From a virus (taxonomy: Duplodnaviria; Heunggongvirae; Uroviricota; Caudoviricetes): a stretch of DNA of 64,000 nucleotides. Both the position numbers and the translations under genes were made by a program. Shown here in pieces: positions 4,218 to 26,044 of the stretch. The notes under the pieces are model-generated. The model was not told the DNA's origin. It saw only the letters and a list, made by a program, of their open reading frames with translations, and did not search any database. The DNA is taken from IMG/VR virus record IMGVR_UViG_3300043470_002422, one strand, 5' to 3'. The stretch's first letter is position 1. Every line of letters starts with the position of its first letter.

Positions 4218-4218
4218 C

Positions 4219-5126: not shown

Positions 5127-5135
5127 TTTAAGACC

Positions 5136-5393: not shown

Positions 5394-5394
5394 A

Positions 5395-5680
5395 GACATT
5401 GTGTGTGTTGTTAAACTTAGGTCCCTCCGGGGACCTTTGTTGTGGAGTAGGGGCTAGTAAAAGGACCCCTCCAGGGTCTGTGTGTAATAGAGAGGGCCCT
5501 CCAGGGAGTGGAGGGGGACCTAATTAGGGGTCCTATTAGGGGGTTAAGGGCCCCTTATATAAGGGGTACCTTGGAGGGGGTCCTGTAACGCTGAGGGGAC
5601 CCCTACAGGGGAGATTCAAGGGGGGGCCTCACGTAGGGGGTCTGTTGGTGGCAGGTCCAGACGCTCAGCGAAGTCCAATT
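5395..5680. repeat. GC-rich G-tract and palindrome island inside an AT-rich genome
   Basis: More than 15 runs of GGGG or longer. Inverted repeats of the AGGTCCC...GGGACCT type and a perfect 16-bp palindrome CCCCTTATATAAGGGG centred on the class B core. Confidence 0.6.
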
Positions 5681-5773
5681 GGATTTCCAGGTAGTCCACT
5701 TGGGATTCTTCATAGCTTTCCTAGTCTTTCCTGGTCTTTCCTGGTTCTCCACCCTAATCTCCTTCCACAGTAG

Positions 5774-5784
5774 AATATATAGGC
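5774..5784 (+). promoter_or_regulatory. Class B motif (GAATATATAGG) 2 nt before ATG 5787
   Basis: Same GGATATATAAG-type element as upstream of the other MKH-leader genes. Confidence 0.5.
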
Positions 5785-5786
5785 AC

Positions 5787-6587: not shown

Positions 6588-6605
6588 ATGTTTCCGTACC
6601 AGTGA

Positions 6606-6618
6606 GGGATATATAAAC
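6606..6618 (+). promoter_or_regulatory. Class B motif GGGATATATAAAC
   Basis: Upstream of the ferritin-like gene. Confidence 0.5.
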
Positions 6619-6634
6619 CAAAATTTAACACCCA

Positions 6635-7246
6635 ATGGCAACACTAAAAGAATTCTTAACTATGAGAGAGAACATGGAAATCCAAGCAATTGAGGTTCCT
6701 GGTCTTGAACTGCCTGCTCAGACTTCCGAGCCTGTAGTAGTAGGATCAGGAGTGCCTAAACCAAAGACTCTGTCATCAGAGATCATCTCGGCTTTAGAAG
6801 CAAGACTCAAAGATGAATACACAGCTCACTACACATACCGTAACGCAGCCAACTGGTGCAAGAACATGAACTATAAGGCAGCAGCAGCCTACTTCGAAGG
6901 CGAAGCAGCAGAGGAGTTAGAACACGCAGCTGGACTTCAGGATTACATGACCCAGTGGAACTGTTTACCACAGATCCCACCTGTAACTGTGCCTAACGAG
7001 TTTACCTCTCTTGTGCATATCATAGGACATGCCTACACTATCGAGTATGATCTGCTTCAGAAGTACTCTGCACTTCAAAGGGCCTTTGATGCTGCTCATC
7101 CTGCTACATTCAATTTCATTCAGAAGTATGTAGACATTCAGAATGAGTCTGTTGCTAGCTACTCTGATCTCCTAAATGCTCTTGAGCTCATTAACATTGA
7201 TTCCAAGCTAGACATTCTAATCTTCGAAGGAAGATATTTCGGATAA
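6635..7246 (+). CDS. ferritin-like protein with an N-terminal extension
   Basis: Di-iron ferritin signature spacing EYTAHYTY...AAEELEHAAGLQDY...TIEYDL...IQNESV. Confidence 0.6.
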   Translation: MATLKEFLTMRENMEIQAIEVPGLELPAQTSEPVVVGSGVPKPKTLSSEIISALEARLKDEYTAHYTYRNAANWCKNMNYKAAAAYFEGEAAEELEHAAGLQDYMTQWNCLPQIPPVTVPNEFTSLVHIIGHAYTIEYDLLQKYSALQRAFDAAHPATFNFIQKYVDIQNESVASYSDLLNALELINIDSKLDILIFEGRYFG

Positions 7247-7268
7247 TCTTATAACACAAACACAACAC

Positions 7269-7300
7269 GAAGGTGTCTCTACTAGGGGCACCTTCTTTGT
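7269..7300 (+). terminator. Hairpin (GAAGGTG ... CACCTTC) followed by a T-rich tract
   Basis: 7-bp stem with a 13-nt loop, then TTTGTGTGT. Confidence 0.35.
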
Positions 7301-7458
7301 GTGTCCTAGTCTTATATGTAGAATGGATTGGGGTGCCGCCGGGAGGGGATGTAAACCCAAAATTTGGGCCTGAGCTTGGGAGGCCCTAGGGGGATCGGGA
7401 GCAAAACTCAGGGGCAGGGCCCAGCGCGCTTTAAAGCACATGATTGACATTGCCTGCA

Positions 7459-7470
7459 GGGATATATAAG
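7459..7470 (+). promoter_or_regulatory. Class B motif GGGATATATAAG 3 nt before ATG 7474
   Basis: Consensus copy. Confidence 0.55.
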
Positions 7471-7473
7471 CGA

Positions 7474-8301
7474 ATGAAGCACTTGCAGACATATAGCATC
7501 TTTGAATCCAAGACGGTACTGACTGAAGACCAGGAGACGTTCTTGTCTCTCTTCGTCGAACCTCTTGAGAATTCGAAGGGGATGCCTGGGACTTGGTCCG
7601 TCAACCCAAAAACCGGCTTGGTTGACGTCAATGGAAACTTTGAGTGCCCACAAAGGGGATTGAAGGACTTTAAGGGAATCTCCTTTGGCCATGTGAGTGG
7701 AGCCTTTGACTGCGATCGAAACGAACTTGTCAGCTTGAAGGGTGCACCTCAGTTGGTGAGAGATTTCTCCTGCGATCGAAATGACCTTGTCAGTCTCGAG
7801 GGAGCACCTCAGTTTGTCAGGGGAGGCTTCTACTGCAACACCAATAGGCTGAAGAACTTAAAAGGTGGCCCGGTAGAAGTGGGAGGGGATTTCTCCTGCG
7901 TTGGCAATGACCTCAAGACCTTGGAGGGAAGTCCAAGAACGGTGGGAGGGGATTTCTACTGCTATTCAAATTCAACTTCTCTTATCTCTTTAGCAGGGGC
8001 TCCAGAAACAATCGGTGGGACTTTTCACTGCGACTGGTTTGAACTTTCCAACTGGGGGGTTCCTGGCCTGCTGGAGACCATCAAGAAGGTCAACCCCAAA
8101 GCTCAGAAGATGATTTTGGACCTCCTGACTCCTGAGAAAATACAGCAGACGATTGACAGAGAGCCTGAGAAGATGGCTGTTGAATTAAAGGGGGTTTGGA
8201 AGACCCTGAAGGCGGATCCAAAATATGCAGGGCTAAAATTTCCAGAAGGAATCCAAGGGGATGCAGAGATGCTGTCAGACCTGGACGACGTTGGTCTTTA
8301 A
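7474..8301 (+). CDS. CTS-like-leader family protein with six LRR-like 22-aa repeats and a C-terminal DLDDVGL
   Basis: ATG 7474 (MKHLQTYSIFES). Repeats of the form C-D-R-N-x-L-V-S-L-x-G-A-P-Q-x-V. Ends LSDLDDVGL. Confidence 0.65.
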   Translation: MKHLQTYSIFESKTVLTEDQETFLSLFVEPLENSKGMPGTWSVNPKTGLVDVNGNFECPQRGLKDFKGISFGHVSGAFDCDRNELVSLKGAPQLVRDFSCDRNDLVSLEGAPQFVRGGFYCNTNRLKNLKGGPVEVGGDFSCVGNDLKTLEGSPRTVGGDFYCYSNSTSLISLAGAPETIGGTFHCDWFELSNWGVPGLLETIKKVNPKAQKMILDLLTPEKIQQTIDREPEKMAVELKGVWKTLKADPKYAGLKFPEGIQGDAEMLSDLDDVGL

Positions 8302-8312
8302 GGATATATAAG
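8301..8312 (+). promoter_or_regulatory. Class B motif AGGATATATAAG
   Basis: Immediately 5' of ATG 8315. Confidence 0.55.
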
Positions 8313-8314
8313 AC

Positions 8315-9199
8315 ATGAAGCACCTACAAACTTATCGTCGATTTGAATCTCAGCATGCCCTGAATGAAGGGGATGAATATCGCAAGATGAACATGGACTA
8401 CCTCTTGAACAAATTTACTCGAGTTCCAAACAACGGGAAGTTGTACAACCCTTCGGAGGAAGACTTTGCAGATCTGCCTTGGTATCAAGCCTTGAAGGGG
8501 GCATTTCCAGATTTCAAACTGGAGAGGGTCAGAAAGAAAGGGAATGGCTACTCTTGGTTCTTCCCTGGGCCAAAACCCAAACCTCAGGCTTTCTACGAGG
8601 TTTTCAGAGAAGGTGACAGAGACTCCCCCTCTGAAGAGCCGGCCAAGATTGTATTCAACAACGATTTAATGACTTCATCTCAGACGTTCACAATTTTACT
8701 CAACGATAAAGAGTCTTGGAATGAGCTCTTTAAGCTGCTCTATTTTGCCCAGTTTGAAGGAAAAATATCAGGACCTACTTGGAGGGGATTAAAACACATT
8801 ATGGAACTCTTCTCTTCGGATTTGGAGTCTTTTTACAAGACCGGAAATCTGGGAATAGTTGGAGTGAAAAAGGATTGCAACCCTTATGGAGGACACTACG
8901 AGTCCTCAGTTGATTTTCTGAAGAACCTTCCTTATGGCATCTTTGATGATCTGAAGGCTGGATTTGTCAAGAAGATGAAAGAAGATCCTGCGGAGATTCA
9001 GTATGCAATTTCTCAGTGTCAACTTCCGAAAGGAACAGCAGAGACCGTATTTGGCACAGCTAGACTCTACCCAGAAAATGAGGTGCTGAACTTCTACAAT
9101 CTGATGAAGCAAGAAGGTTATGTTCCACCGGCCGGATTTGACGAAGAAACTGGGGAAATTTCAGATATACACAAATCTCTAGGGGACATCGGTCTGTAG
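8315..9199 (+). CDS. CTS-like-leader family protein, C-terminal LGDIGL
   Basis: MKHLQTYRRFES leader. Ends SLGDIGL at a TAG stop. Confidence 0.6.
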   Translation: MKHLQTYRRFESQHALNEGDEYRKMNMDYLLNKFTRVPNNGKLYNPSEEDFADLPWYQALKGAFPDFKLERVRKKGNGYSWFFPGPKPKPQAFYEVFREGDRDSPSEEPAKIVFNNDLMTSSQTFTILLNDKESWNELFKLLYFAQFEGKISGPTWRGLKHIMELFSSDLESFYKTGNLGIVGVKKDCNPYGGHYESSVDFLKNLPYGIFDDLKAGFVKKMKEDPAEIQYAISQCQLPKGTAETVFGTARLYPENEVLNFYNLMKQEGYVPPAGFDEETGEISDIHKSLGDIGL

Positions 9200-9210
9200 C
9201 ATATAAGGAC

Positions 9211-11110: not shown

Positions 11111-11125
11111 ACCGTATATTCTAAT
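11111..11125 (+). promoter_or_regulatory. Class A motif ACCGTATATTCTAAT overlapping the start region
   Basis: Consensus copy. Confidence 0.55.
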
Positions 11126-11651
11126 GAATATGACAACTCAAGAATTTATAAAATTTTGCAAACATCAACACGATGTAGAATGCAACCAAAAGTATGGAAA
11201 GATCCATCCTTATTCCTTTCACCTTGATCTAGTAGCTACCCAAGCTAAAAAGTTCGAAGAACTCCTAGGTGATTTTGATCTAGACCTAGATAAAACAATT
11301 ATGGCATCATGCTACGGTCACGATCTGATCGAAGATGCCAGAGTTACCTACAACGATATCAAAGAAATGGTGGGAGAGAAGATCGCAGATATTATCTACT
11401 GTTGCACCGAAGAGAAAGGTAAAAACAGAGATCAAAGACACAGTGAGAAGTATTTTGCCGAACTGAAAGAAAACGAACTTGCAATCTTCGTTAAACTTTG
11501 CGACATCACTGCCAATGTTAAATATTCTCTTTTAACAGACTCTGGAATGTTTAAAAAATACAGAAAAGAATTTCCTAAAGTTAAAGAACATCTTTACGTA
11601 GAGAAATTCAAACCCCTGTTTGACCACCTAGAATCAATCCTTTCAATCTAA
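11124..11651 (+). CDS. HD-domain phosphohydrolase, small dNTPase-like
   Basis: H...HD...D spacing with FHLDLV and CYGHDLIEDARV. 175 aa. Confidence 0.55.
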   Translation: MNMTTQEFIKFCKHQHDVECNQKYGKIHPYSFHLDLVATQAKKFEELLGDFDLDLDKTIMASCYGHDLIEDARVTYNDIKEMVGEKIADIIYCCTEEKGKNRDQRHSEKYFAELKENELAIFVKLCDITANVKYSLLTDSGMFKKYRKEFPKVKEHLYVEKFKPLFDHLESILSI

Positions 11652-12027: not shown

Positions 12028-12069
12028 CTCTGACCGTATATTCAATAAAATAACAATTAAAAAAATCAA

Positions 12070-12627
12070 ATGGAAACTAAAAAAATCATCAAGTATGCAG
12101 TAATGGGCATCATCGGACTTTTTGTATTTGGTATCTTTACCAGCATCATTTCAACCTCAAACCAAGAGGTGGATTTGAGAAACAGATTCAAACAAAAGAT
12201 GGACGAGAGAACAGCATTCTACGACAAAATGTGGAAAACTATTTCCCAGAAATCTCAAGTTGCTCTTCGAAATGACAGCTCATTTGCAAACAACGTGAAT
12301 GCAATCATGGCAGGAAGAAAGGACGCACAAGGGCTATTTATGAAATGGGTTCAGGAATCAAATCCGAATGCGAACTATGAAACCGTATCCTCTTTGTATG
12401 CCGATCTAAGCCGAACTATTGAAGGCCAGAGAGATGGATTCTTCATGGAAGAAAAAATGATCCAGTCGATAGTGCTAGAACATGATAACATCATGGGTAA
12501 ATTTCCTTCAGGGGTTATTCTTTCAACCTTCATGGGCAGAACTAAGCTAGTCTACAAACCTATAACTTCAGATGTTACCGACGAGGTCATCAAGACAGGT
12601 AAAGACAACAACACGAAAGTGTTCTAA
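12070..12627 (+). CDS. membrane-anchored hypothetical protein
   Basis: Class A motif at 12032-12046. N-terminal TM segment. Confidence 0.5.
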   Translation: METKKIIKYAVMGIIGLFVFGIFTSIISTSNQEVDLRNRFKQKMDERTAFYDKMWKTISQKSQVALRNDSSFANNVNAIMAGRKDAQGLFMKWVQESNPNANYETVSSLYADLSRTIEGQRDGFFMEEKMIQSIVLEHDNIMGKFPSGVILSTFMGRTKLVYKPITSDVTDEVIKTGKDNNTKVF

Positions 12628-12652
12628 TTCAAGCAAAATTAAAAAAACAGAT

Positions 12653-13480
12653 ATGAAAAAACTATTAGTCGTTTTAATGGCACTATTCACAGTCTTAACA
12701 GCAAGTGCCAAGTGTGATTTTTCTAAAGTTAAAGTTCAACAATGGAATCAAGGAGTCTATTATAAATGGTACACTTCAGGATGGGAAGTAGATTCTTGTA
12801 AATCGATGACCTTTCTTCTATTTGATTACCAAACCCAAAAAACCGATACACTATTTAGCTTCAGGGGTATTGTTGAAATTGCCTTTAATGCACCAGGTTC
12901 TTATAAACTTTACATTAAGCTATCTGACAGATGCAATAAATGTGATACCGCGATTTATCGAATTGTAGAAATTCAAAGATGGTACCCTAAAGCAATGTAT
13001 ACTGATAAGTTTATTACCTGTGATAGCTTAGTCGGCGAAATGGGAATTATATCTAACATTAAAGACACCTGCTACAGCTATTATTACACCATATATAGTG
13101 GAAATGAGTTAGACGAATTGACTAAGAATGATTGGGGAGCTATGAAAGATCGAGATTTGATCGATTATTATTCTTTTTCACTTGATGACATTCGATATTC
13201 TTCTTCCAATTCTAGAAGGATTAATTATAAATTCCCCAACGAAGGAAGATTTTTGATGGTAACCCAGTACTATAATAAATGTAATAACCAAGATACTTTC
13301 TTTCTAAGAAGATATAATATTGACTGCAGTACAACAGGGATTACATCCATCACTAAACAGGAACCTAAACTAATAGGTATGTTTGATGTCTTGGGAAGAC
13401 CGGTTACGTACGTTCGAGAAAATGAACTTGTAATCTACCTCTACAGTGACGGTACATACAAAAAAATAATTAGGAACTAA
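12653..13480 (+). CDS. secreted Cys-rich protein with a T9SS (Por_Secre_tail-like) C-terminal domain
   Basis: Probable start MKKLLVVLMALFTVLTASA (signal peptide). C-terminus ...PVTYVRENELVIYLYSDGTYKKIIRN is typical of the T9SS type A CTD. Confidence 0.5.
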   Translation: MKKLLVVLMALFTVLTASAKCDFSKVKVQQWNQGVYYKWYTSGWEVDSCKSMTFLLFDYQTQKTDTLFSFRGIVEIAFNAPGSYKLYIKLSDRCNKCDTAIYRIVEIQRWYPKAMYTDKFITCDSLVGEMGIISNIKDTCYSYYYTIYSGNELDELTKNDWGAMKDRDLIDYYSFSLDDIRYSSSNSRRINYKFPNEGRFLMVTQYYNKCNNQDTFFLRRYNIDCSTTGITSITKQEPKLIGMFDVLGRPVTYVRENELVIYLYSDGTYKKIIRN

Positions 13481-13499
13481 ATTTAAATTTAAACTTTAA

Positions 13500-13528
13500 A
13501 GGTCGCTAAATTTTAGCGACCTTTTTTG
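13500..13528 (+). terminator. Rho-independent terminator
   Basis: GGTCGCTAAA / TTTAGCGACC 10-bp stem followed by TTTTTTG. Confidence 0.7.
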
Positions 13529-13543
13529 TGTTTATTATTTACT

Positions 13544-13559
13544 GACCGTATATTTACTA
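13544..13559 (+). promoter_or_regulatory. Class A variant GACCGTATATTTACTA
   Basis: Upstream of ATG 13577. Confidence 0.5.
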
Positions 13560-13576
13560 AATAATAAATCAAAAAT

Positions 13577-14785
13577 ATGTTAATCTGGCTTTGTCTACTA
13601 ATTCCTCTCATTGGAGCAATCGTTCTTCTTAAATGGTACAAACACACCCTAGTCTGGTGGGAAGTTCTAGTCCCTCTAGTTTCCTGCTTCTTCTTTATCC
13701 TAATCTTCAAATTCACAGTTGAAAAGATTCAAACCAGCGACACCGAGTATAAAGGTGCTCTCATAGTTGAAGCTAGATACTACGAGTACTGGGAAACTTA
13801 TGTTAGAAAAACCTGTTATAGAACTCATAAAGTAGGGAAGACAACTATTACAACTTCCTATGATTGTTCTTATTGCGATCACAATCCGGAACACTGGACG
13901 ATGATAAATTCTTTGGGACAAGAATTCTCTATTACCAAGGAACACTACGAAAAATTAAGAAAGCTCTGGAATTCTACCCCTCAATTTTTAGAATTGAACC
14001 GTAGTATAAACCACAGCTTCTTTGGATGCGGTAAGGATGGAGATGCATACGTAATCAAATGGAATTTAAATCCTTTGACCTCCAGATCTACCACGGAATC
14101 AAACACCTACGACAATAGGGTTCAAGCTGCACATTCTGCTTTTGATTTCTTAGAAGTATCTGAGGAAGATGTAAAAAGATATAAACTATTCGAATATCCA
14201 GAAATTAAAGGTTACACCCAAGAGAATGTATTAGGTCTAGATTCTATGCCCTATATTCCAAAAAGTAAAATTGACACTTTCAAAATTTTAGCTCATTATT
14301 TGAATGGAAAGCTAGGTCCAGAAAAACACGCCAGAATTTATTTCCTCTTCTTTGAGGCTAAAGATCAGCTAACAGCATCCATGCAAGAGGCTTACTGGGA
14401 CGGAGGTAATGATAACGAATTGGTTATCTGCATAGGAATAGATCCGAAGACTCAGAACCTAAACTGGGTAAAACCCTTCTCCTGGACTCCTAATCGACAA
14501 GTGATACCGGAAATCCGAGAGGAGATTATGGAAGTAGGTAAATTTGATCCGGTAGCAATTTCTAACCGAGTGGAGGGTGTGGTTAGATCCAAATACAAAA
14601 GAAAAGACTTTAGAGAATTCTCTTATCTGACAGTAGATCCTCCAGCTTGGTCTATCTGGGTTACCGCAATTCTTACCGCAATTATTACCTTCTTATTATC
14701 CAGATGGGCGGCAATCAACGATATAGGTAACGATGGAGATATGTCAGGAGACTTTTTTAGCAGAAAGAGAACTTACAGATGGTAA
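13577..14785 (+). CDS. membrane protein (TM helices at both termini)
   Basis: Hydrophobic N- and C-terminal segments. Confidence 0.5.
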   Translation: MLIWLCLLIPLIGAIVLLKWYKHTLVWWEVLVPLVSCFFFILIFKFTVEKIQTSDTEYKGALIVEARYYEYWETYVRKTCYRTHKVGKTTITTSYDCSYCDHNPEHWTMINSLGQEFSITKEHYEKLRKLWNSTPQFLELNRSINHSFFGCGKDGDAYVIKWNLNPLTSRSTTESNTYDNRVQAAHSAFDFLEVSEEDVKRYKLFEYPEIKGYTQENVLGLDSMPYIPKSKIDTFKILAHYLNGKLGPEKHARIYFLFFEAKDQLTASMQEAYWDGGNDNELVICIGIDPKTQNLNWVKPFSWTPNRQVIPEIREEIMEVGKFDPVAISNRVEGVVRSKYKRKDFREFSYLTVDPPAWSIWVTAILTAIITFLLSRWAAINDIGNDGDMSGDFFSRKRTYRW

Positions 14786-14802
14786 TTAGACTATAATAAG
14801 AA

Positions 14803-15393
14803 ATGGCAACAATAAAAGATAAGTGGCACTGGAAATTACAAAGATGGGTTAAACACGATTTACCCTATCTGCATCTAGAATTTGCAAGGGGAATTAAAAA
14901 CCTATGGAGATGGTTTCCTGTCATTTGGAAAGACAGAGATTGGGACGATCACTACATCTTTGAAATCCTGAAGACCAAGTTGAAGAACCAAGCAGAGTAC
15001 ATCGGAACTAGAAACATTCACACTAGAGCAAAGAGAGATTCTGAGATAATGCTTCTTTGTGCTAGATTGACGGAAAAGGTTCAGGAAGAATTTTATTCAA
15101 TGGAATACATGGACTACCACGAGTCAAGATACAATTGGATCGACTCTGAAGATTTTCCAGATTCCAAACAATTAGAAATAGAGGAAATTTCTGAGAACTA
15201 TGACGAGTATCTTGCAAAACACAAATTGGCAGTAAAAAGAGTTATCTCTGATCCTAAGCATCAAATTTTCAAATTGACAGAGGATGACTATAAACAAAGA
15301 CTAGCGATGAACGTCTCCCATTATAATCACAAAAGAGCAAGAAAAATTCTTTTCGAATTAATGGAAAGAAATATTGAGGGCTGGTGGGATTGA
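14803..15393 (+). CDS. hypothetical protein
   Basis: ORF only. Confidence 0.45.
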   Translation: MATIKDKWHWKLQRWVKHDLPYLHLEFARGIKNLWRWFPVIWKDRDWDDHYIFEILKTKLKNQAEYIGTRNIHTRAKRDSEIMLLCARLTEKVQEEFYSMEYMDYHESRYNWIDSEDFPDSKQLEIEEISENYDEYLAKHKLAVKRVISDPKHQIFKLTEDDYKQRLAMNVSHYNHKRARKILFELMERNIEGWWD

Positions 15394-15813
15394 GCAGATT
15401 TCGTACCCTATATATGATATATAAATTGAATAATATTTACATATCAAGCCAAGAAAAAAACATCTACTCATTATATTTAAAAAACAACCTGCACAATTAC
15501 TAAAAAATTTTATATTGGGATTCTTTCTACATCTATTTTGGATGATGGATATTTAGGATCTGGAGTAAAATTAACCAGATCTGTTAAGAAATATGGAAAA
15601 TACAATCACATTAAAGAAATTCTAGAATACTTGAGTGATAGAGAGTCTTTATTATAATAAAAGAATTATTAGTAAACGAAGATCTAATAAATGATCCATT
15701 TTGTATGAATTTAATAGTAGGAGGAAATTTTTCGGGGCTCAATTATCGTAAAGAACACACCGAAAAAACTAAAAATAAAATTTCTTCTAAATAAAGGGAA
15801 AATAGAAAAAATT

Positions 15814-18800
15814 ATGGCTCAAAAGTATTTGAGCAAAGCTTTGGCTTTCGCTTTAACCTTGTTTGCAACACAAGGAAATCTTCATGCAGCATGCGGGAAT
15901 CTCACACCGAGTTTCAGTAATGCATCCAACAAAACCTGTGGTATACCTCAGGTAATTACACTTACCAATACTTCCACTGGAAACAGTCGAAATGTAGCCA
16001 CCTACAAGTGGTATGTGGGTACCACACTGCTGAGCACACAAGTTGGCAAATCCACCCAAAAATACACCATCAACACTGCAGGTAGCTATACCTTCAAGTT
16101 GGTGGCGATAGATACGGGTAAGGTGGGCTGTAAAGACAGCACAAGCACTACCATTACCATTTCGGCATCTGTTCCGAGAATTTTGGATGGCAATAGAGTA
16201 AATACCTATTCTCCCATTTGGGAAAATTGTATAAGTTCATTGGGGGTTCCTGACACCTTTGGTATAAATATCAAACCTCAGGATTCATTGCGAAATTACA
16301 CCATAGTTTGGGGGGATGGCACCGGTAATTCTACTGGCACTTTACTGCTTAGCAGCCAATCCCTCTACCATAAGTATAATTCACTAGGACAATTTACTTT
16401 ATTAATCATCGGAACAAAGGGAAGTTGCACTGATACCCTTCGAGGTGTGGTGTCGAATGAAAGAAATCCTGTGGCTGGAATTGTGGGTCCACCAACAGGA
16501 ACCAATGCAGGTTGTGTGCCCATTCGCATGCGTTTTATCAATAACTCTTCCTTAAGCTCACCTAGCACCACTTTTACCTGGGATTTTGGCAATGGCGAAA
16601 CCATAGTAAGGGGATTCAATACCCACAAAGACACTTTATTTTATACCTATAAGCGCTTTTTGTGTAATGGCATCGTGAAACTTACTCAAACCAATAATTG
16701 TGGTTCGAGTTTTGCCACCTGGAACCCAATCATGGCTTCCTCTAAGGATACTGCCATTATTGCGCCGACCAATCCGACCAACTGCGATCTTGCTGTACCT
16801 TTTACGTTTAACAATACCTCTCAAAATCGTTTTTGTAGCACGCCAAACAATAAGAAATACCTCTGGGTTTGGGGCGACGGAACCAATTCTGGTTGGAGTA
16901 CTTCTTCTGCTTCGCAGTCTAAAACCTACAGCAAGCGCGGTGTGTACCAGGTCTTGCTGATTGATTCAAATGGCTGCGGTAAAGATACTGCAAGGTATAC
17001 CTTGCGTATCGATAGCATGCCTACCATTTCTGCAGGCCCAGCGTCGGCTGCAGGATGCTCACCTTTGGTGGTAAACTTCAGAGACAACAGCATAAATGCA
17101 ACTTCTAGAAATTGGGATTTTGGATATGCAACACCAACAAGCAGTGCGCAAAACCCAACCCATACCTATCAAACAGGTGGTACATATAGAGCAGTGCTGA
17201 CAGTAGCCAACAATTGTGGATCATTAAAAGATACTGTCCTTATTACTGTCAAACAAAAAGTAAAGGCAAACTTCAATACACCGCTTACTGGCTGTGCTCC
17301 ATTAACACAGAAATGGACCAATACATCTGTCAAAGGATTGGCAGGAACCCCTACATATTTCTGGGATTTTGGGGACGGAACAACTTCTACCCAGGTGAAT
17401 CCTCCAGATAAAACTTACTCTACGTTAGGGACATATACCATTACACTCATTGCTACAGACTCATGCGGTAAGGATACCATTAAAAAGACGTTTACCGTCC
17501 GTGGTAAGCCCTCTGCTACAATTACTTTGTTATCTTCAAGCCGGTGTGTGGGCAGCACTTTAGATATTCGCTTTGTAACCTCACCCGTAAATACAGCTTC
17601 AGTTATCTGGGGTGATGGAACCAATGGCAGCAGTTATTTCGGATTGGGTGGTTCAGTTGACCGCACGGTTTCCAGAAAATACGACAGTCTGCGCACCTAC
17701 AGATTTGGGGTAGTTATGGTGGATCCAAGCGGTTGCCGAGACACCAATTACCTAAACATTGCAATGGATCCAAGGCCTACGATGAACTATACCTACACCA
17801 CAACCAATGGTTGTGGTCCTTTGGATGTTACATTTACCAATACCAGTGCGCACAATGGAGGGGGTAACATCAACCAAATGAAGTTCTTATGGAACTTTAG
17901 TAATGGTATATTGGCTTACAGCAAAGATACTGCAGCTAGGTTCTTGCCGTTTAAAACAAGAGACTCTATTTATCCCGTTAAATTAATTGGAACAAACGCC
18001 TTTGGCTGCAGAGATTCCATTACCAAAACGGTTCGAGTTTATCCAAAACCATTGAGTAAATTTAGTATTAGTGAAAAGGATGGTTGTGCACCTTTGGATA
18101 TTACTACTACGAACAATTCTACTCCATATGACACGGGTTCTATAAACATAATGAAGTTTATATGGGACTTTGGCAACGGCAGGAAAGCGTTTGGTAAAGA
18201 TACTGCTGCTCGATTCTTAGCCAGTAAAACAAAAGATACTGTGTATACTGTTAGTCTGATATCTATTTCTGAACATGGTTGCCGAGATACCAGTTCAACC
18301 ACAGTGCGTATTTATCCAAAACCTAAAGCCTTATTTACCAGAAGTAAAACTGAAGGTTGCAAACCACTCGGGGTTACCTATGTCAACCAAAGTGTACCCT
18401 ACGATACCGGCAATATATCAATAATGAGTTTTGCTTGGGATTTAGGAAATAGAATTACCTCATTCGCTACAGAACCTGTGGGTATCTATAATGATGCGAT
18501 AAACAAAGATACTACTTATAAGGTACGTTTGATTGCCACTAGTGAGCACGGATGCAAGGATACTGCAAATTCCACTGTACTGTTACATCCGAATCCGGTG
18601 ATTAAATTTGATATGAGCCGCACCAATGGCTGCGGTCCATTGCCTGTGAGCTTCTCGAACAAGAGCATCAACGGCGATGCATTTACTTGGGAGTTTGGCG
18701 TATATGGAACTGATACCGCAAAGAGTCCTAGTAAGGTATTCTATGGCCGCGATATTTTTGACTCAGTAGTAGTGGTGAAGCTTAGCGCGATGAGCAAATT

Positions 18801-20907
18801 TGGCTGCTTGAGTGATACGCTAAAAGACGAAGTGACGGTTTTTGGATTACCTATTGCCAACTATCTAGTTTCAACAGATACCTTCTGTTTCCCTGACCTG
18901 ACGCAGTTTTTGAACCAAAGTTTGGCTTCCTACAACTACACTTGGGATTTGGGCGATGGCACTGTAACAGGAACTACAAACCCCAAACATTTCTTCAAGA
19001 AAAGCTCAAGTCCATTTAGTGATACTACCTATTTCATCAAACTTGTTGCTACAAGCCCTTACGGATGTAAGGACACCGCAAACGGCAGTATGACCGTATT
19101 GCCTTACCCTATTCCAAAATTCAGTGTTGACAATCCTGCGGGTTGTGCGTCACACACAGTGAAGTTCAACAACCAGTCGGTAAACGTGTTGAATTACCTG
19201 TGGGTATTTGGAGATGGATATACATCAACCGATGTGAACCCTACCCATACCTTTATAAATACCGGTGCGAATGATACGGCGTATCAGGTTGTTCTTTATA
19301 CCTACTCTTTGGATTGTGTAGACTCTACTAGTATTTGGATACCAGTTTACAAGCCCTCGTATTCATTCTTCAGAACGGACCGGGTAAATCCATGTGATGC
19401 TGGATATTTTAAATTCCAGAGCTTTGGCGAAAATGCGCCAATTGTGAAGTACAATTTTGGTGATGGTAGCACATCAACTTTTCCCAACCTAACGCATTTA
19501 TTCCCAACCTCACCTTACACCGATACAAGCTTCATCGTTACACTATACACCACAAGCAATCGCGGTTGCACAGACAGCTTTAAACGCACAGTTACGCTCC
19601 CACAGCGACTTTCTATCGGAATGAAAGACACCAGTTATGCGCTATGTGCTCCGACGGTAATTCAGTTTACAAACTACACAAGGGGTGCACGCACATATAT
19701 TTGGGACTTTGGAGATAATGGAGGAAGTTCTCAGAAGAACCCAATTTATGAATACCAAAAACCGGGCTTATACGCATATAAGTTGTTTGCCTTTGACGCA
19801 AATGGGTGTATTGACAGTCAGGTTTCAAACGGCACTGTTCGTGTGGATGTGAGTCCTAAAGCGGATTTTGACTTTAGTCCTGGTAAAGGCCGCATGCCAA
19901 ATGACAACCGTATTTTCTTTACTGACAAGAGCCGCAGTGTGATACCACTGACCTATTTCTGGGATTTCTCGGATCCAGCGGGTATACCTGCAACGAGTAC
20001 GATTCAAAATGCAACCCACGATTTTAGCGACTCTGGAGACTATAAAATCTGTTTGACGGTAGATAATGGGGGTTGTAAGAATATATTTTGCAATTTTGTA
20101 CGCATCGATCCGGCATTTCCAACCCCAGATTTCTCGGTGGGTGGGGATTCGGGTTGCCCACCTCTTACCGTGCAGTTTACCAACCTTTCTGTGAACTCTG
20201 ACCGCTATATATGGTTCTTTGGTGACGGTGAAAGAAGCGAGGACAAAGACCCAGTCCATACCTATAAGTACAGCGGATATTACGACGTGATTTTGATCGC
20301 AAAAGGTCCAGGGGGTGAGGGTAAAACGGAGAAGAAGCAGTTCATAAAAGTATTGAATGCACCATTCACGTATTTCAATCTCACGCCCTCTATATTGTAC
20401 CTTCCTGATGCCAAATTCACAACTCGAAACCTGACTACTGGAGCTGTAGGATATCAGTGGAATGTGTACAACAGCAGCACTAGAAATCGAGTTGGGAATA
20501 GCCTTTTGGTGAATCCCTATTTCCAAGTAAACGATACGGGGCATTATGATGTGGAATTGATTTCAGTAAGCAGTCAGGTCTGTTATGATACCCTATTGTT
20601 GCCCAAGCCCATCTACGTGAATCCACGTGGCATATTGCATGTACCGGATGCCTTCACACCTACCAATGATGAACGCAACGATGTGTTTAAACCAAGCGCG
20701 ATAAACGTGCAAAAGGATTTCTATCTCTTCCAGATCTATAACAGATGGGGTGAAATCGTATTCGAAACCAAAGACCCCGATGAGGGTTGGGACGGCCGTA
20801 AAAAGGGCAAAATATGCCAAAGTGGAGTCTATGTATATAAAATCAATGCAAGACTCTTCAGCGGGGATGATATTTCAGCGGATGGTGTGGTTCACTTGAT
20901 TCGATAG
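15814..20907 (+). CDS. giant secreted protein (1697 aa) with PKD/Ig-like repeats and a CHU_C-type T9SS (gliding-motility-associated) C-terminal domain
   Basis: Signal peptide MAQKYLSKALAFALTLFATQGNLHAAC. At least 15 repeats of the W-D-F-G-D-G-T type. C-terminus VPDAFTPTNDERNDVFKP...IYNRWGEIVFE...GWDGR...GVYVYKI matches the TIGR04131-type CTD. GC content is higher than the surrounding genes. Confidence 0.75.
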   Translation: MAQKYLSKALAFALTLFATQGNLHAACGNLTPSFSNASNKTCGIPQVITLTNTSTGNSRNVATYKWYVGTTLLSTQVGKSTQKYTINTAGSYTFKLVAIDTGKVGCKDSTSTTITISASVPRILDGNRVNTYSPIWENCISSLGVPDTFGINIKPQDSLRNYTIVWGDGTGNSTGTLLLSSQSLYHKYNSLGQFTLLIIGTKGSCTDTLRGVVSNERNPVAGIVGPPTGTNAGCVPIRMRFINNSSLSSPSTTFTWDFGNGETIVRGFNTHKDTLFYTYKRFLCNGIVKLTQTNNCGSSFATWNPIMASSKDTAIIAPTNPTNCDLAVPFTFNNTSQNRFCSTPNNKKYLWVWGDGTNSGWSTSSASQSKTYSKRGVYQVLLIDSNGCGKDTARYTLRIDSMPTISAGPASAAGCSPLVVNFRDNSINATSRNWDFGYATPTSSAQNPTHTYQTGGTYRAVLTVANNCGSLKDTVLITVKQKVKANFNTPLTGCAPLTQKWTNTSVKGLAGTPTYFWDFGDGTTSTQVNPPDKTYSTLGTYTITLIATDSCGKDTIKKTFTVRGKPSATITLLSSSRCVGSTLDIRFVTSPVNTASVIWGDGTNGSSYFGLGGSVDRTVSRKYDSLRTYRFGVVMVDPSGCRDTNYLNIAMDPRPTMNYTYTTTNGCGPLDVTFTNTSAHNGGGNINQMKFLWNFSNGILAYSKDTAARFLPFKTRDSIYPVKLIGTNAFGCRDSITKTVRVYPKPLSKFSISEKDGCAPLDITTTNNSTPYDTGSINIMKFIWDFGNGRKAFGKDTAARFLASKTKDTVYTVSLISISEHGCRDTSSTTVRIYPKPKALFTRSKTEGCKPLGVTYVNQSVPYDTGNISIMSFAWDLGNRITSFATEPVGIYNDAINKDTTYKVRLIATSEHGCKDTANSTVLLHPNPVIKFDMSRTNGCGPLPVSFSNKSINGDAFTWEFGVYGTDTAKSPSKVFYGRDIFDSVVVVKLSAMSKFGCLSDTLKDEVTVFGLPIANYLVSTDTFCFPDLTQFLNQSLASYNYTWDLGDGTVTGTTNPKHFFKKSSSPFSDTTYFIKLVATSPYGCKDTANGSMTVLPYPIPKFSVDNPAGCASHTVKFNNQSVNVLNYLWVFGDGYTSTDVNPTHTFINTGANDTAYQVVLYTYSLDCVDSTSIWIPVYKPSYSFFRTDRVNPCDAGYFKFQSFGENAPIVKYNFGDGSTSTFPNLTHLFPTSPYTDTSFIVTLYTTSNRGCTDSFKRTVTLPQRLSIGMKDTSYALCAPTVIQFTNYTRGARTYIWDFGDNGGSSQKNPIYEYQKPGLYAYKLFAFDANGCIDSQVSNGTVRVDVSPKADFDFSPGKGRMPNDNRIFFTDKSRSVIPLTYFWDFSDPAGIPATSTIQNATHDFSDSGDYKICLTVDNGGCKNIFCNFVRIDPAFPTPDFSVGGDSGCPPLTVQFTNLSVNSDRYIWFFGDGERSEDKDPVHTYKYSGYYDVILIAKGPGGEGKTEKKQFIKVLNAPFTYFNLTPSILYLPDAKFTTRNLTTGAVGYQWNVYNSSTRNRVGNSLLVNPYFQVNDTGHYDVELISVSSQVCYDTLLLPKPIYVNPRGILHVPDAFTPTNDERNDVFKPSAINVQKDFYLFQIYNRWGEIVFETKDPDEGWDGRKKGKICQSGVYVYKINARLFSGDDISADGVVHLIR

Positions 20908-20956
20908 ACTATCTGTGTAACAAGATGGCATAATGAAAATTGTAATAATAAAAATT

Positions 20957-20970
20957 GACCGTATATTTAT
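20957..20970 (+). promoter_or_regulatory. Class A variant GACCGTATATTTAT
   Basis: 4 nt before ATG 20974. Confidence 0.5.
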
Positions 20971-21350: not shown

Positions 21351-22253
21351 ATGTTACAATTAAATTTAGCAGACTCAGATAAGTCACAGATCAAATTTAA
21401 ACCATCTGCATTTCCAGACGGCCAGCAATCAATCACTTTAGCTCTGTCCACAATCTCAGATCTAGAAATATCTTGCACAATCAAGTCCAGATTAAATTCT
21501 TTCAGGGATTTAGAACTCATAGTCTGCGCAGCAGCTGCATTGAGAGAAGCTGGAATGGAAAGAATTCACCTTTATATTCCATACTGTCTAGGCGGAAGAT
21601 CTGACATCAAATTTGAAGAAGGTGGCTTAAACTACATCAAGAGTGTAATTGCACCTATCATCAATTTACAAAAATTTACTTCTGTTACCGTCATGGATGC
21701 TCACTCGATAGCTCTAGAAAATTGCATTGATAATTTGAAAAAGCTAGACAATTCTTATCTTGCAAAATGGGCAATCAAGGATCTATCTTCAGAAGGAGGA
21801 GATTTCAAATTGGTCTCTCCTGATGCTGGAGCACTAAAGAAAATATTCTCAACAGCTAAATCTATCGGATATAAAGGAGAAATAATAGTTGCTGAAAAAG
21901 TTAGAGATTTATCTACCGGAAAAATTATTCACACCAAGGTACCTATAAACGTTTATGATGCAGATAAAGATTTTATCATTATAGATGATATCTGTGACGG
22001 TGGGAGAACATTCATAGAAATCGCCAAGGCTATAGAAGAAATGAGATCTTTAAGTTCAGTGGTTCATCCAGATAAGCACGGAAAAAATTACCTTATCGTA
22101 ACTCACGGCATCTTCAGCGCAGGATTTGAAGAACTTAGTAAATATTTTGATAGAATTTATACCACCAATTCTATCTCCGAAATAAACGAGTCTGAAAATT
22201 ACAAAGGTGCTGAATTTGATAAACAATTTGTTAAACAACTAAACGTATTCTAA
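21351..22253 (+). CDS. ribose-phosphate pyrophosphokinase (PRPP synthetase) family protein; candidate ADP-ribose diphosphokinase (Adps-like)
   Basis: PRTase motifs VMDAHS..., LVSPDAGALKK and IIIDDICDGGRTF. ATG 21351 follows the motif. Confidence 0.65.
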   Translation: MLQLNLADSDKSQIKFKPSAFPDGQQSITLALSTISDLEISCTIKSRLNSFRDLELIVCAAAALREAGMERIHLYIPYCLGGRSDIKFEEGGLNYIKSVIAPIINLQKFTSVTVMDAHSIALENCIDNLKKLDNSYLAKWAIKDLSSEGGDFKLVSPDAGALKKIFSTAKSIGYKGEIIVAEKVRDLSTGKIIHTKVPINVYDADKDFIIIDDICDGGRTFIEIAKAIEEMRSLSSVVHPDKHGKNYLIVTHGIFSAGFEELSKYFDRIYTTNSISEINESENYKGAEFDKQFVKQLNVF

Positions 22254-23634: not shown

Positions 23635-24516
23635 ATGGGAAATTCAAGTTATTCTACCTATAATAGATCCATCAGATCCGAATCTTTTGGCTATCATAGC
23701 AAATCAAGAAACGAGATCTTTACCCAAAGTAAAGAGGGTAAAGCTCACGAGCAAATGAGACCTAAAGGAATCGTCTACAGAGAATGTAGAGATTCCGAGG
23801 CTCACCCGAATGCTACCCCGATTCAGCTTTATTTGGACGTTACCGGAAGCATGGGACATATTCCCCACGAAATGATTAAAGACGGTTTACCAACTTTAAT
23901 GGGGAATCTAATTCAAAGAGGTGTAGAGGATGCTTCCCTTATGTTTGGAGCTATCGGTGACCACGAATGTGACAAATCACCTCTCCAAGTTGGACAGTTT
24001 GAATCTGGTGACGAAGAATTGGACATGTGGCTTACCAGAACCTGGCTCGAAGGCGGAGGTGGTGGAAACGGCGGAGAAAGCTATCCATTAGCTTGGTATT
24101 TCGCAGGAAATCACGTTGCAACAGATGCTTGGGAGAAGAGAAACCAAAAAGGATTCGTATTCACTATCGGTGATGAGCCTTTCCTTAATTCTCTACCAAT
24201 GTCTGCAGTAAAGGAAATCATGGGGGATTCAGCATCAGGCCAATCTACTTGGGATGCTACAGTTCTTCTAGAACAAGCTCAAAAGACAAATCACGTTTTC
24301 CATATCTTCTTAGAACATGGTTACAGAAAAGTTGATTCGGCTTGGAAAGAATTAATGGGAGATCACCTTATAGTTGCAAAAGACTATAAAGATATCCCGA
24401 AAATTATCTCAGAAACAATTTTAACTATTCAAGGGGAAAGAAAACCTTCTGAGAATGCGACCGTATATTCTAGTAATACTACAGATGAAAAAGACTCTGT
24501 AGATATTATCCTATAA
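23635..24516 (+). CDS. vWA-like (MIDAS DxTGSM) domain protein
   Basis: LYLDVTGSMGHIP and a GGGGGNGG loop. Confidence 0.4.
   Translation: MGNSSYSTYNRSIRSESFGYHSKSRNEIFTQSKEGKAHEQMRPKGIVYRECRDSEAHPNATPIQLYLDVTGSMGHIPHEMIKDGLPTLMGNLIQRGVEDASLMFGAIGDHECDKSPLQVGQFESGDEELDMWLTRTWLEGGGGGNGGESYPLAWYFAGNHVATDAWEKRNQKGFVFTIGDEPFLNSLPMSAVKEIMGDSASGQSTWDATVLLEQAQKTNHVFHIFLEHGYRKVDSAWKELMGDHLIVAKDYKDIPKIISETILTIQGERKPSENATVYSSNTTDEKDSVDIIL
24459..24477 (+). promoter_or_regulatory. Class A motif embedded in the 3' end of the upstream gene
   Basis: GACCGTATATTCTAGTAAT, 40 nt before ATG 24516. Confidence 0.5.
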
Positions 24517-25574
24517 TGAATACGAGCAAAATAGTAATTGGACTAAACTACGGAGACGAAGGAAAGGGGTTAACCACCTCTTTCCTCTGTTCCCAATCTA
24601 AAAATCCCATCGTTGTTAGATTCAACGGGGGTCACCAAGCAGGTCACACAGTATCCTTCAAAGGAAAAAGACATGTGTTTTCTAGCTTTGGATCAGGAAC
24701 ACTTCAAAAAGTTCCAACGTACTGGAGCAAATATTGCACATTCTCTCCGACAGCATTTCTAAATGAATTAAAATTTCTACTGGATAAATCTTTAAAATTC
24801 CCAGGATTTTATCTTGATCCTTTATGTCCAATCACAACACCTTACGATTTATACAGCAACCGAAAAGATTCCCAGAATGTGAGTCATGGAACAGTCGGGG
24901 TAGGATTTGGATCAACTCTTAAAAGACACGAAAACTTTTATAAGCTTTATGCACAGGATATGTTCTATCCAGAAGTCTTCAAAGCAAAATTAGAAAACAT
25001 TGCTAAGTATTACGGAATGGAGGATCTCGAAATCGATAACTTTTTAGAAGACGTAACAATTGTAACTACTATAGTTCAATTGACAAATGAAAAAGTTCTT
25101 TTAAATTATTCAGATGCTATATTTGAAGGGGCTCAAGGGGTTCTTTTAGATATGGATTTTGGATTTTTTCCAAACGTTACCAGATCTAATACAACATCTA
25201 AAAATGCACTGGAAATTTCTCCTCTGCATTCAAACGAAATCTACTACATCACAAGATCTTATTTAACTAGACACGGAGCTGGATTTCTTCCAGGAGAAAA
25301 AGAACTTCCCCTAATTAATAATGAATTGGAGACAAACGTCTCTCATGAATACCAAGGAAATTTTAGAACAGCAGATTTAGATTTGGATCTTCTAAACTAT
25401 TCTTTAAAATGTGACTCTCATTTTTCTGAGGGTCAAACCAAAAATCTAGTAATTACCTGCATGGATCAATATCCAATAGATGTAGAAAAATTGCTAGAAA
25501 AATTAGAAATTAAATTCAATAAAGTGTTCGTCTCTTACGGGGATTCACTTGATAAAATACAACAATTAAAATGA
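24516..25574 (+). CDS. adenylosuccinate synthetase homolog, short archaeal/PurZ-like type (352 aa)
   Basis: P-loop GDEGKG and NGGHQAGHTV motifs. About 80 aa shorter than bacterial PurA, as in phage PurZ. Confidence 0.65.
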   Translation: MNTSKIVIGLNYGDEGKGLTTSFLCSQSKNPIVVRFNGGHQAGHTVSFKGKRHVFSSFGSGTLQKVPTYWSKYCTFSPTAFLNELKFLLDKSLKFPGFYLDPLCPITTPYDLYSNRKDSQNVSHGTVGVGFGSTLKRHENFYKLYAQDMFYPEVFKAKLENIAKYYGMEDLEIDNFLEDVTIVTTIVQLTNEKVLLNYSDAIFEGAQGVLLDMDFGFFPNVTRSNTTSKNALEISPLHSNEIYYITRSYLTRHGAGFLPGEKELPLINNELETNVSHEYQGNFRTADLDLDLLNYSLKCDSHFSEGQTKNLVITCMDQYPIDVEKLLEKLEIKFNKVFVSYGDSLDKIQQLK

Positions 25575-26044
25575 AAATAACAGAAAAATATGTCTTCTTT
25601 TGGAACGGGATTTATTCTCAGTGGCACAAAGCAAAAATGACAATCGACGGTGTTGAGTATAGCTCTTGTGAGCAATATATGATGCATCAAAAAGCTATCG
25701 TCTTCAGCGACTTTTATATTGCATCTCAGATACTTCTGACAGAGAATCCGAAAGAGCAAAAAGCACTCGGAAGACAAATTCAAGGGTTTGATAAAAACAT
25801 TTGGGATTCGGTTTGCTTGAGCATAGTCTATAAAGGAAATCTAGCTAAATTTTCTCAAAATGAGGATCTAAAATCAGATCTTCTTTCCACCGAGAATAGA
25901 ATCCTGGTAGAAGCTTCACCCTTGGATCAAATTTGGGGAATTGGAATGGCAGAGGATCATCCAAATATAGAATCTCCAGAACACTGGAGGGGACTGAACT
26001 TGCTTGGATGGGCGTTAAACTTAGTAAAAAAAGAATTAAATTAA
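25571..26044 (+). CDS. NADAR / YbiA (DUF1768) domain protein
   Basis: FFW...SQW......YSSCEQYMMHQKA...F...NPKEQKALGRQIQGF....W...L..KF.QN..L...LL.T....L.E.SP.D..WGIG. Confidence 0.6.
   Translation: MKITEKYVFFWNGIYSQWHKAKMTIDGVEYSSCEQYMMHQKAIVFSDFYIASQILLTENPKEQKALGRQIQGFDKNIWDSVCLSIVYKGNLAKFSQNEDLKSDLLSTENRILVEASPLDQIWGIGMAEDHPNIESPEHWRGLNLLGWALNLVKKELN

Follow-up and report, generated by a model that had tools for sequence, protein, structure and literature searches.

Introduction

Proteins whose C-terminal domain (CTD) is of type B are exported through type IX secretion systems (T9SS) and held on the cell surface by a cognate PorP/SprF-like protein (PMC9143113, PMC12618676). The type B CTD needs this PorP/SprF-like protein as its shuttle, which is often encoded beside the substrate gene (PMC9143113, PMC12618676), and orphan type B substrates with a distant shuttle are known as well (PMC12618676). 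T9SS cargo in phages has two precedents, namely type A domains encoded by three of the variable genes of "Cryophages" (Bellas et al., 2020, PMC7468147) and sorting-domain proteins on contigs of gut crAss-BACON phages (de Jonge et al., 2019, PMC6949934), both of them metagenomic and without experiments. For phage proteins with a type B CTD, the literature searched contained no report. Here, we describe such a protein, encoded by a giant gene of 1,697 codons in a stretch of 64,000 nucleotides from the Caudoviricetes record IMGVR_UViG_3300043470_002422 (the whole of this stretch is called the window in the following). The giant gene was captured from a bacterial host and bears the marks of purifying selection in the phage, and its product would probably be displayed on the infected cell by the T9SS of the host. 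A second, small secreted protein of 275 aa, which is encoded upstream of the giant gene and ends in a short tail of a different kind, was analyzed alongside.

Results

The giant protein (coordinates of all features in Table 1) is divided into a Sec signal peptide (approximately aa 1–25), about 18 PKD-like modules (aa 27–1600) and a type B CTD (aa 1603–1697). Its N-terminus reads like a signal peptide (MAQKYLSKALAFALTLFATQGNLHA/AC, the slash marking the boundary), with a positive n-region, the hydrophobic stretch ALAFALTLFA and the boundary LHA/A, and is the same as that of the bacterial ortholog after a relocated start codon. In Pfam, PKD_4 matched in ten stretches (306.6 bits, 2.6e-93) and PKD with 150.9 bits (1e-44); the number of modules was derived from a domain-end motif, C-x(1-3)-D-[ST], that recurs every 80–99 residues. 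Residues 1609–1680 passed the curated cut-offs of both TIGR04131, the model for T9SS type B (44 bits, 1.9e-11; cut-off 35), and CHU_C PF13585 (56.6 bits, 2.8e-15; cut-off 27), and a purpose-built hidden Markov model (HMM) of the type B CTD recognized the protein at 4e-40. By these sequence features the giant protein has the complete layout of a T9SS type B substrate. The original prediction, a reading of the bare sequence, had described a product of 1697 aa with a signal peptide, more than 15 PKD/Ig-like repeats and a gliding-motility-type (CHU_C) CTD, all of which was borne out by the reading frame and the profile searches. Its wider picture of two T9SS substrates at this locus was supported by the layout of the giant protein, but not, in the form stated, for the type A tail that it had ascribed to the small one.

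No PorP/SprF-like gene stands beside the giant gene in the phage (precomputed Pfam annotation, 5.6–53 kb of the window), nor does one stand beside the orthologs at the donor chromosomal loci examined. Membership in type B is still allowed without such a neighbor, because orphan substrates with a distant shuttle are known.

By origin, the giant gene belongs to a host. Bacterial relatives of full length (approximately 1,700 aa, 41–91% identity) turned up in a database search on contigs of up to 1.47 Mb, and bacterial orthologs at 68–97% identity share one synteny in every case examined: IleRS, a DksA/TraR protein, LspA, Der, RlmN, the gene itself, an epimerase, UDP-glucose dehydrogenase (UDPGDH) and an aminotransferase. 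The donor locus L004, on contig JBEIRK010000018.1 of a metagenome-assembled genome named "Flavobacteriales bacterium", holds the gene in this conserved synteny. By blastn it matches the window with 96.3% nucleotide identity within the captured interval only, and the phage protein is 97% identical to a bacterial member. Both junctions are sharp: the captured DNA reaches from 19 nt upstream of the start codon used in the phage to 15 nt past the stop codon and does not include the bacterial terminator hairpin. In the phage, ATA stands where the bacterium has its ATG (MAKITTQKYLSK...), and the new ATG (MAQKYLSK...) arose from an ACG four codons downstream.

With 43.2%, the GC content of the giant gene resembles that of the donor contig (44.2%) and exceeds that of the rest of the window (37.0%). 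The higher GC content for which the gene had been singled out is thus real, yet it is not unique to it, and GC alone does not mark out the giant gene because the genes at 82–9200 are equally GC-rich. These genes have a GC content of 40–49%, and up to 0.58 at third codon positions, compared with 33–40% in the rest of the window, and this block may have a different origin or belong to a different expression class.

Neither the giant gene nor any other type B CTD gene was present within 10 kb in the 80 closest phage loci that bear g196, the conserved phage gene upstream of the captured DNA. A relative that is 80% identical (L319) carries an unrelated open reading frame (ORF) directly upstream of g116, the gene that follows the giant gene in the window, and thereby at the giant gene's place. 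Within the 90%-identity cluster the alleles are bimodal: the bacterial alleles are approximately 97.0% identical to the phage copy (49–51 differences), fragments of the phage allele are 100% identical, and there are no intermediates. Host and phage alleles were not seen together in one sample, the bacterial allele coming from other sample accessions. The donor gene at 96.3% identity, the gene-exact junctions, the matching GC content and the absence from related phages confirm the recent host capture that had been proposed.

For an analysis of selection, the phage copy was aligned with the donor gene (L004) and with that of L003, a bacterium with 81% nucleotide identity that served as outgroup for polarising substitutions; over 1,697 codons the alignment has no gaps. 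The phage branch carries 46 synonymous and 38 non-synonymous substitutions (ratio of non-synonymous to synonymous change, pN/pS, 0.24), and the donor branch 49 and 10 (pN/pS 0.06). The phage branch departs from neutrality (p = 1.5e-10) and differs from the bacterial branch (Fisher p = 5.6e-4). Among 84 random substitutions 3.4 nonsense mutations would be expected on the phage branch, and none was seen. The synonymous divergence between phage and donor amounts to 0.11; there was therefore ample time for decay. Nevertheless, only two of the 95 CTD residues differ from the donor (N1656D, M1667I; 98% identity), all 39 Cys residues were kept and the signal peptide is unchanged except for the moved start codon. 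From these observations it is concluded that the giant gene is functional in the phage, under a constraint that is real and relaxed about four-fold. Purifying selection of this kind suggests that the phage uses the gene.

The window is phage DNA. Profile searches assigned the neighbors of the giant gene to phage families (a phosphoribosyl pyrophosphate (PRPP)-synthase-like protein, a nicotinamide phosphoribosyltransferase, an adenylosuccinate-synthetase-like protein and several PHROGs without assigned function), and neither these searches nor the precomputed Pfam annotation revealed bacterial housekeeping genes in the window; tRNAs were not found in it either. The giant protein, identical in sequence and with the same phage flanks on both sides, recurs in at least 14 contigs, which are independent assemblies from several JGI metagenomes and two SRA runs, the longest contig with these exact proteins measuring 126.8 kb. 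The 402-aa protein g402 shares 33% identity with proteins of the Tenacibaculum phages PTm1 and pT24, whose genomes have 225–235 kb, and about 30% with proteins of Lak megaphages, and the relatives of g196 in IMG/VR (n = 149) lie on viral contigs of up to 299 kb. The phage gene families together with the relatives of g402 and g196 therefore place the window in a large, probably jumbo, phage of freshwater Bacteroidota, which is, judged by these protein identities, distantly related to PTm1 and pT24. Among 50,697 deposited phage records, megablast found no match to 9–24 kb of the window, and tblastn with the giant protein returned four weak partial matches only.

The site downstream of g196, into which the host gene was taken up, is hyperplastic: in related phages, 47 distinct next proteins from 21 unrelated clusters follow g196. 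In the window, what appears to be an intergenic spacer of 420 bp contains a decayed gene. The family phrog_314, annotated as homing endonuclease, matches a frame-1 segment (5.5e-13) and a frame-3 segment (1.7e-3) that are contiguous in the profile, and the composite of both matches at 1.4e-16 over profile positions 187–297 of 574. Stops and a frameshift interrupt the reading frame, whose final stop codon (15792–15794) directly adjoins the start of the captured DNA at 15795, which is the 5′ junction; the same remnant is found in every contig of the source phage. Searches with the Pfam models GIY-YIG and NUMOD3 gave no match to the remnant, which left a by-eye GIY-YIG/NUMOD3 reading unconfirmed and PHROGs as the sole support for a homing endonuclease. 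On this profile evidence the remnant, a pseudogene fragment, probably derives from a homing-endonuclease gene. Intact-looking homologs of it occur in other viral loci (e.g., L215 and L259). Judging from position only, the host gene would have entered at or next to a recombination hot-spot linked to the endonuclease and would have cut the endonuclease gene short.

The gene g196 encodes a helical protein with the motif NLWRWFPVIWKDRDWDD and directly adjoins type B CTD cargo genes of varied size in at least four phage lineages (L193–195, L216, L240–243 and L249). The idea that g196 is a dedicated partner of type B cargo was rejected, as none of its 80 closest loci contains a type B CTD gene and the genes downstream of it fall into 21 unrelated clusters. 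It is read here as the flank of a hot-spot, and a functional link to type B cargo may nonetheless exist. In the closest IMG/VR relative (L090, 299 kb) the variable interval between the g196 homolog and the PRPP synthase contains a gene (12255–12689) whose product was recognized by eye as an SmpB-like protein (KAKFDYEYL...).

A promoter-like motif, GACCGTATAT, occurs in 22 copies in the window when up to one mismatch is allowed (1.9 expected). All copies are on the + strand, mostly 14–40 nt upstream of a start codon, and they lie within positions 925–36293 except for one at 49587. The motif probably serves the source phage as early or middle promoter. It precedes g185 (12032), g402 (13544), g116 (20957) and the PRPP-synthase-like gene (21325). 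Between 13554 and 20956 it does not occur, in agreement with the earlier claim that the large gene lacks a phage promoter motif which its neighbors bear. The small gene starts 25 nt after g185 and is directly followed by a strong terminator-like hairpin, and since the gap is this short and the hairpin stands behind the small gene, the two genes are probably co-transcribed. No terminator-like hairpin was found on the + strand between 13553 and 15813. The arrangement suggests a transcription unit that starts at 13544 and comprises g402, g196, the remnant and, by read-through, the giant gene. Overall, the scans for sigma-70 promoters and terminators performed no better than on shuffled sequences.

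The small protein carries a signal peptide (MKKLLVVLMALFTVLTASA/KC) that is conserved across its family, as had been proposed. It is followed by two Cys-rich PKD-like/Ig-like beta-sandwich domains (27–107 and 116–223), a linker and a 48-aa tail, TGITSITKQEPKLIGMFDVLGRPVTYVRENELVIYLYSDGTYKKIIRN. According to the family alignment, the modules end in the PKD-like signatures G-Y-K-Y-K...C-KCDT and G-R-L...NKC-QDTF, after which the tail of approximately 48 aa is highly conserved. The family comprises 172 clusters, which stem from metagenomes only and lie on large phage-like contigs with varying neighbors, and it is a separate, phage-restricted family. In an AlphaFold2 model (predicted local distance difference test score, pLDDT, 80.5), the two beta-sandwich domains are followed by a linker that is disordered and by a unit of three strands at 240–244, 258–264 and 269–274. 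Foldseek searches of the PDB returned generic tandem Ig/FnIII folds, which are uninformative for the tail, and no CTD structure was among the top matches; Pfam gave no match to the small protein itself. On one phage-like contig of 150 kb (L086, 5328–6717), a homolog of the small protein adjoins a 352-aa SprB-repeat protein (PF13573, the gliding-adhesin repeat), encoded along with a Collar-domain protein; the former is another host-surface-like gene on a phage contig.

The "Por-type", i.e., type A, tail that had been assigned to the small protein did not stand up to profile searches. Neither TIGR04183 nor PF18962 matched at E ≤ 10, be it with the whole protein or with its last 69 aa, and a purpose-built type A HMM reached E = 0.64 only. 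The seven-strand sandwich of a type A CTD (approximately 70–100 residues) was not found in the AlphaFold2 model, in which the tail has three strands only. An exhaustive profile search revealed, however, that the Cys-rich module occurs as a repeat in larger proteins (P0260, P0308 and P0287), whose repeats match PKD, PKD_3 or PKD_4 and whose C-termini are Pfam-significant Por_Secre_tail domains. When searched by itself, the tail was matched at the very C-terminus of unrelated proteins with signal peptides, a LamG protein and a PKD protein among them, and none of these proteins gave a match to Por_Secre_tail. In 54 IMG/VR loci it always ends 0–5 residues from the stop codon, always belongs to signal-peptide proteins and never scores as a canonical type A CTD. 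Its passengers in IMG/VR form four unrelated groups, one of which is a family of 620–900 aa with one member containing a MAM domain.

A remote relationship was seen when profiles were compared. With 40 bona fide type A CTDs from bacterial loci as reference, hhalign scored the tail at 24.2 and 26.0 (probability 64–77%; 26 columns aligned), a score that none of 300 column shuffles reached (maximum 17.8); for comparison, type A against type B scored 17.8 and the tail against type B approximately 10.5. When 582 bacterial C-termini were ranked with the tail HMM, the top 15 were all type A CTDs (hypergeometric P = 2e-19). The tail keeps the central strand with D-x-x-G-R-x-V and the terminal strand, and is devoid of the PNP-containing N-terminal strands. 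By profile-profile and ranking evidence only, it is a remotely related and truncated form of the type A CTD. It appears to behave as a portable C-terminal signal, which takes the place of the canonical type A CTD found in the repeat relatives, and probably acts in sorting or anchoring; that the small protein depends on the T9SS is plausible.

Proteins that combine a signal peptide with a type B CTD at the extreme C-terminus were found on at least 82 IMG/VR contigs in a scan with a type B CTD alignment. They measure 125–2,015 aa, and many of the contigs have 150–675 kb. The recurrent phage families among them (L183–L262) include one of approximately 817 aa, whose members start with MKxLLLLFLFPLFVYSQYCPxLGPDQ and lie on contigs of 150–290 kb, and one of approximately 187 aa with little beyond a signal peptide, a short domain and the type B CTD. 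On the viral contig IMGVR_UViG_3300036770_008729 (281 kb; L234, L317), a type B CTD protein of 1,205 aa and a protein of 472 aa that bears the short type A-like tail are encoded no more than about 10 kb apart.

Two further groups of genes in the window are worth recording. The PRPP-synthase-like gene (21351–22253), a gene for a NADAR-domain protein (25571–26044) and the nicotinamide phosphoribosyltransferase gene (27572–29101) form a set for the salvage of nicotinamide adenine dinucleotide. The adenylosuccinate-synthetase-like gene (24516–25574; phrog_1211, 1.3e-55; Pfam Adenylsucc_synt) and a gene for a 175-aa HD-domain phosphohydrolase (11124–11651; phrog_990) seem reminiscent of PurZ and DatZ, the pair found in phages whose DNA contains 2-aminoadenine (Z-base).

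Table 1. Positions of the features discussed, counted from the first letter of the window.
Feature	Position	Strand	Basis
Giant host-derived surface-protein gene, 1,697 aa	15814..20907	+	domain matches, donor identity
Captured bacterial DNA	15795..20922	+	blastn against L004 and L003, junction alignments
g196, conserved phage gene flanking the hyperplastic accessory site	14803..15393	+	149 relatives on viral contigs
Homing-endonuclease remnant (decayed, frameshifted, truncated)	15453..15794	+	phrog_314
Promoter-like motif, nearest upstream of the giant gene	13544..13553	+	motif statistics and positions
Promoter-like motif opening the g116 unit, 35 nt past the 3′ junction	20957..20966	+	motif scan, junction alignment
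Promoter-like motif upstream of g185	12032..12041	+	motif scan
Small secreted phage protein gene, 275 aa	12653..13480	+	family alignment, AlphaFold2 model
Short CTD-like tail of the small protein, approximately aa 228–275	13334..13477	+	hhalign, tail HMM
Terminator-like hairpin (12-bp stem, then T run) directly 3′ of the small gene	13498..13524	+	hairpin scan

Discussion

The reading that we prefer, and consider probable on the sequence evidence presented above, is that the phage displays the captured giant protein via the T9SS of its host and thereby alters the surface of the infected cell. The phage took up a complete host gene at a hyperplastic accessory site beside an endonuclease gene that has since decayed, and the captured gene would be transcribed by read-through from the upstream motif at 13544. 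Its product would cross the inner membrane by Sec, the host T9SS would pass it through the outer membrane, and the cognate PorP/SprF-like shuttle of the host would hold it on the cell surface. The phage protein presumably depends on the shuttle of the host, since PorP/SprF genes are absent both from the annotated part of the window and from the surroundings of the donor gene, and the host-like state in which the CTD has been kept fits with such a dependence. Once on the surface, the phage allele may replace, dilute or compete with the host allele. The benefit could lie in the alteration of the surface, by superinfection exclusion or by the protection of progeny from debris, or in the upkeep of adhesion during host shut-off. 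We lean slightly towards the former because the excess of amino-acid change is found in the passenger domains and the CTD is frozen. Mutations in T9SS and gliding genes are a common route to phage resistance in flavobacteria (bioRxiv 10.1101/2020.10.02.323337; PMC9804748), and T9SS-displayed proteins are therefore plausible receptors.

Several points weigh against this reading. Every step past the intact and constrained gene is our inference, and so are the functions put forward in the original prediction (export by the host T9SS with superinfection exclusion, receptor masking, adhesion or virion docking as its purpose). That the actual host possesses a T9SS is deduced only from CTD-bearing genes on contigs of the donor clade. 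The stretch without promoter motif leaves the giant gene without a phage promoter motif of its own. The four-fold higher pN/pS of the phage copy may be due to a constraint that is partly relaxed and not to adaptive change, and some of what is counted as the phage branch may be older than the transfer. As to the small protein, the failure of the curated type A models, the three strands in place of a seven-strand sandwich in the AlphaFold2 model and the lack of the PNP-containing strands speak against T9SS export. Published work puts the length required for efficient type A secretion at approximately 80–100 residues.

The alternative that survives best concerns this small protein. Its tail might not be a T9SS signal at all but an element for oligomerisation, beta-strand complementation or anchoring that has no part in secretion, on a protein that reaches the periplasm or outer membrane by Sec alone. 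Such a reading would account for the missing TIGR04183 and PF18962 matches, for the mere three strands and for an hhalign alignment of just 26 columns. It fits less well with a tail that keeps its place at the stop codon on unrelated signal-peptide passengers, that is replaced by a canonical Por_Secre_tail at the same position in relatives with the same repeat and whose HMM ranks type A CTDs first among bacterial C-termini. We take this alternative seriously, although we would rather not bet on it. Conversely, the boldest extension of our preferred reading, namely that Bacteroidota phages systematically exploit the host T9SS both with captured type B adhesins, which as diverged alleles on the infected cell compete for the shuttle and block superinfection or protect progeny, and with a type A-derived tag of approximately 48 aa and three strands of their own, appears doubtful at present. 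If it were true, this tag would route PKD-like, LamG, MAM and other passengers through the T9SS and would be the shortest natural T9SS signal known.

It is improbable, in our view, that the giant gene is a mere passenger, i.e., recent host DNA that is tolerated in a dispensable hot-spot, is not used and has yet to decay. The hyperplastic surroundings beside a dead homing endonuclease, the absence of the gene from all relatives examined, the missing promoter motif and the four times higher non-synonymous change on the phage branch are what a passenger might look like. Yet neither an indel nor a stop has arisen over 5,091 nt despite a synonymous divergence at which 3.4 nonsense mutations were expected, and the pN/pS of the phage branch is far from neutral. 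Not only are the signal peptide, the 39 Cys residues and the CTD preserved, but the start codon was also re-created four codons downstream after the loss of the original ATG, and the protein is identical across many independent samples. By general reasoning, limits on packaging would moreover make 5 kb of useless DNA a costly load.

Virions commonly bear Ig-like, PKD and FnIII domains, and Ig-like ones occur on the capsids and tails of many phages. The giant protein or the small Ig-like protein could, in a comparable way, be a virion decoration or an adhesin that lets particles attach to polysaccharide or mucus. The Foldseek matches of the small protein do include FnIII domains of the tail-tip proteins of T5, lambda and T1, but these are generic Ig folds with TM-scores of 0.25–0.35. 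A PHROG with the annotation "virion structural protein" is matched by the gene that lies upstream of the small one. The giant protein itself is a verbatim host surface protein and not a fusion to a structural protein. Both proteins have Sec signal peptides, and the T9SS CTD of the giant one is 98% identical to that of the host. Docking onto virions is the least likely function and quite improbable overall, because a Sec signal peptide combined with a T9SS CTD would direct the protein away from the cytoplasm, the place of virion assembly. That the region is host chromosome at a prophage-host junction, which would have undone the original prediction, or an assembly chimera of phage and host, can be dismissed as practically negligible: the 96% identity to a chromosomal gene and the host-like GC content would suit it, but bacterial homology does not extend beyond the gene ± 20 nt, phage genes stand to either side, no bacterial housekeeping genes are among the annotated genes of the window, the phage allele lies approximately 50 residues from every bacterial allele without intermediates, and at least 14 contigs were assembled independently with the same arrangement, junctions included.

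Display of the captured protein by the host T9SS thus remains the reading that we favor. Phage-borne T9SS cargo has previously been a passing metagenomic remark, and the present locus gives it a donor, junctions, a hot-spot, a relative with an empty site and a selection regime. The near-identical host allele points to an uncultured Flavobacteriales lineage as the likely host. With type B CTD proteins on at least 82 viral contigs, the behavior appears to be general among large Bacteroidota phages. A remodelling of the cell surface by phages bears on phage resistance in flavobacteria, for which T9SS and gliding mutants are the usual escape (bioRxiv 10.1101/2020.10.02.323337; PMC9804748). If the short tail is a working T9SS signal, it would define a minimal recognition unit and offer a compact secretion tag for the engineering of Bacteroidota.

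Comparison With Known Systems

Among characterized T9SS type B substrates, SprB of Flavobacterium johnsoniae and PG1035 of Porphyromonas gingivalis have the same composition as the giant protein, with a Sec signal peptide, an array of beta-sandwich repeats and a CTD of approximately 95 aa. Unlike this class, the giant protein is encoded by a phage and is an "orphan" without an adjacent PorP/SprF gene. Its passenger consists of PKD modules and not of SprB repeats, and its secretion is predicted.

The cargo of the Cryophage and crAss-BACON contigs likewise belongs to Bacteroidota phages, lies in variable regions, carries T9SS sorting domains and is presumed to use host secretion. There, however, type A or unspecified domains are attached to enzymes, BACON proteins or PA14 proteins, and the donor was not identified, whereas the present case concerns type B and a 5.1-kb gene whose origin could be followed back to a syntenic locus of the host (96% nucleotide identity). 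Its junctions and selection regime are defined, and a separate class of short tails exists beside it.

A further parallel is psbA of cyanophages, which is also a complete host gene that purifying selection keeps intact and that is presumably expressed in infected cells, where it would supply or modify a host function. In contrast to psbA, the product of the giant gene is a secreted surface-repeat protein and not a metabolic enzyme, and the gene is confined to one phage lineage instead of being widespread. Finally, the tail of the small protein shares with the type A CTD (TIGR04183/Por_Secre_tail) the D-x-x-G-R-x-V strand, the terminal strand of the form hydrophobic-Y-x-Y...K-K and the position at the extreme C-terminus. 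It differs in size, with approximately 48 aa and three strands compared with 70–85 aa and seven strands in type A, and it has so far been seen on phage-like contigs.

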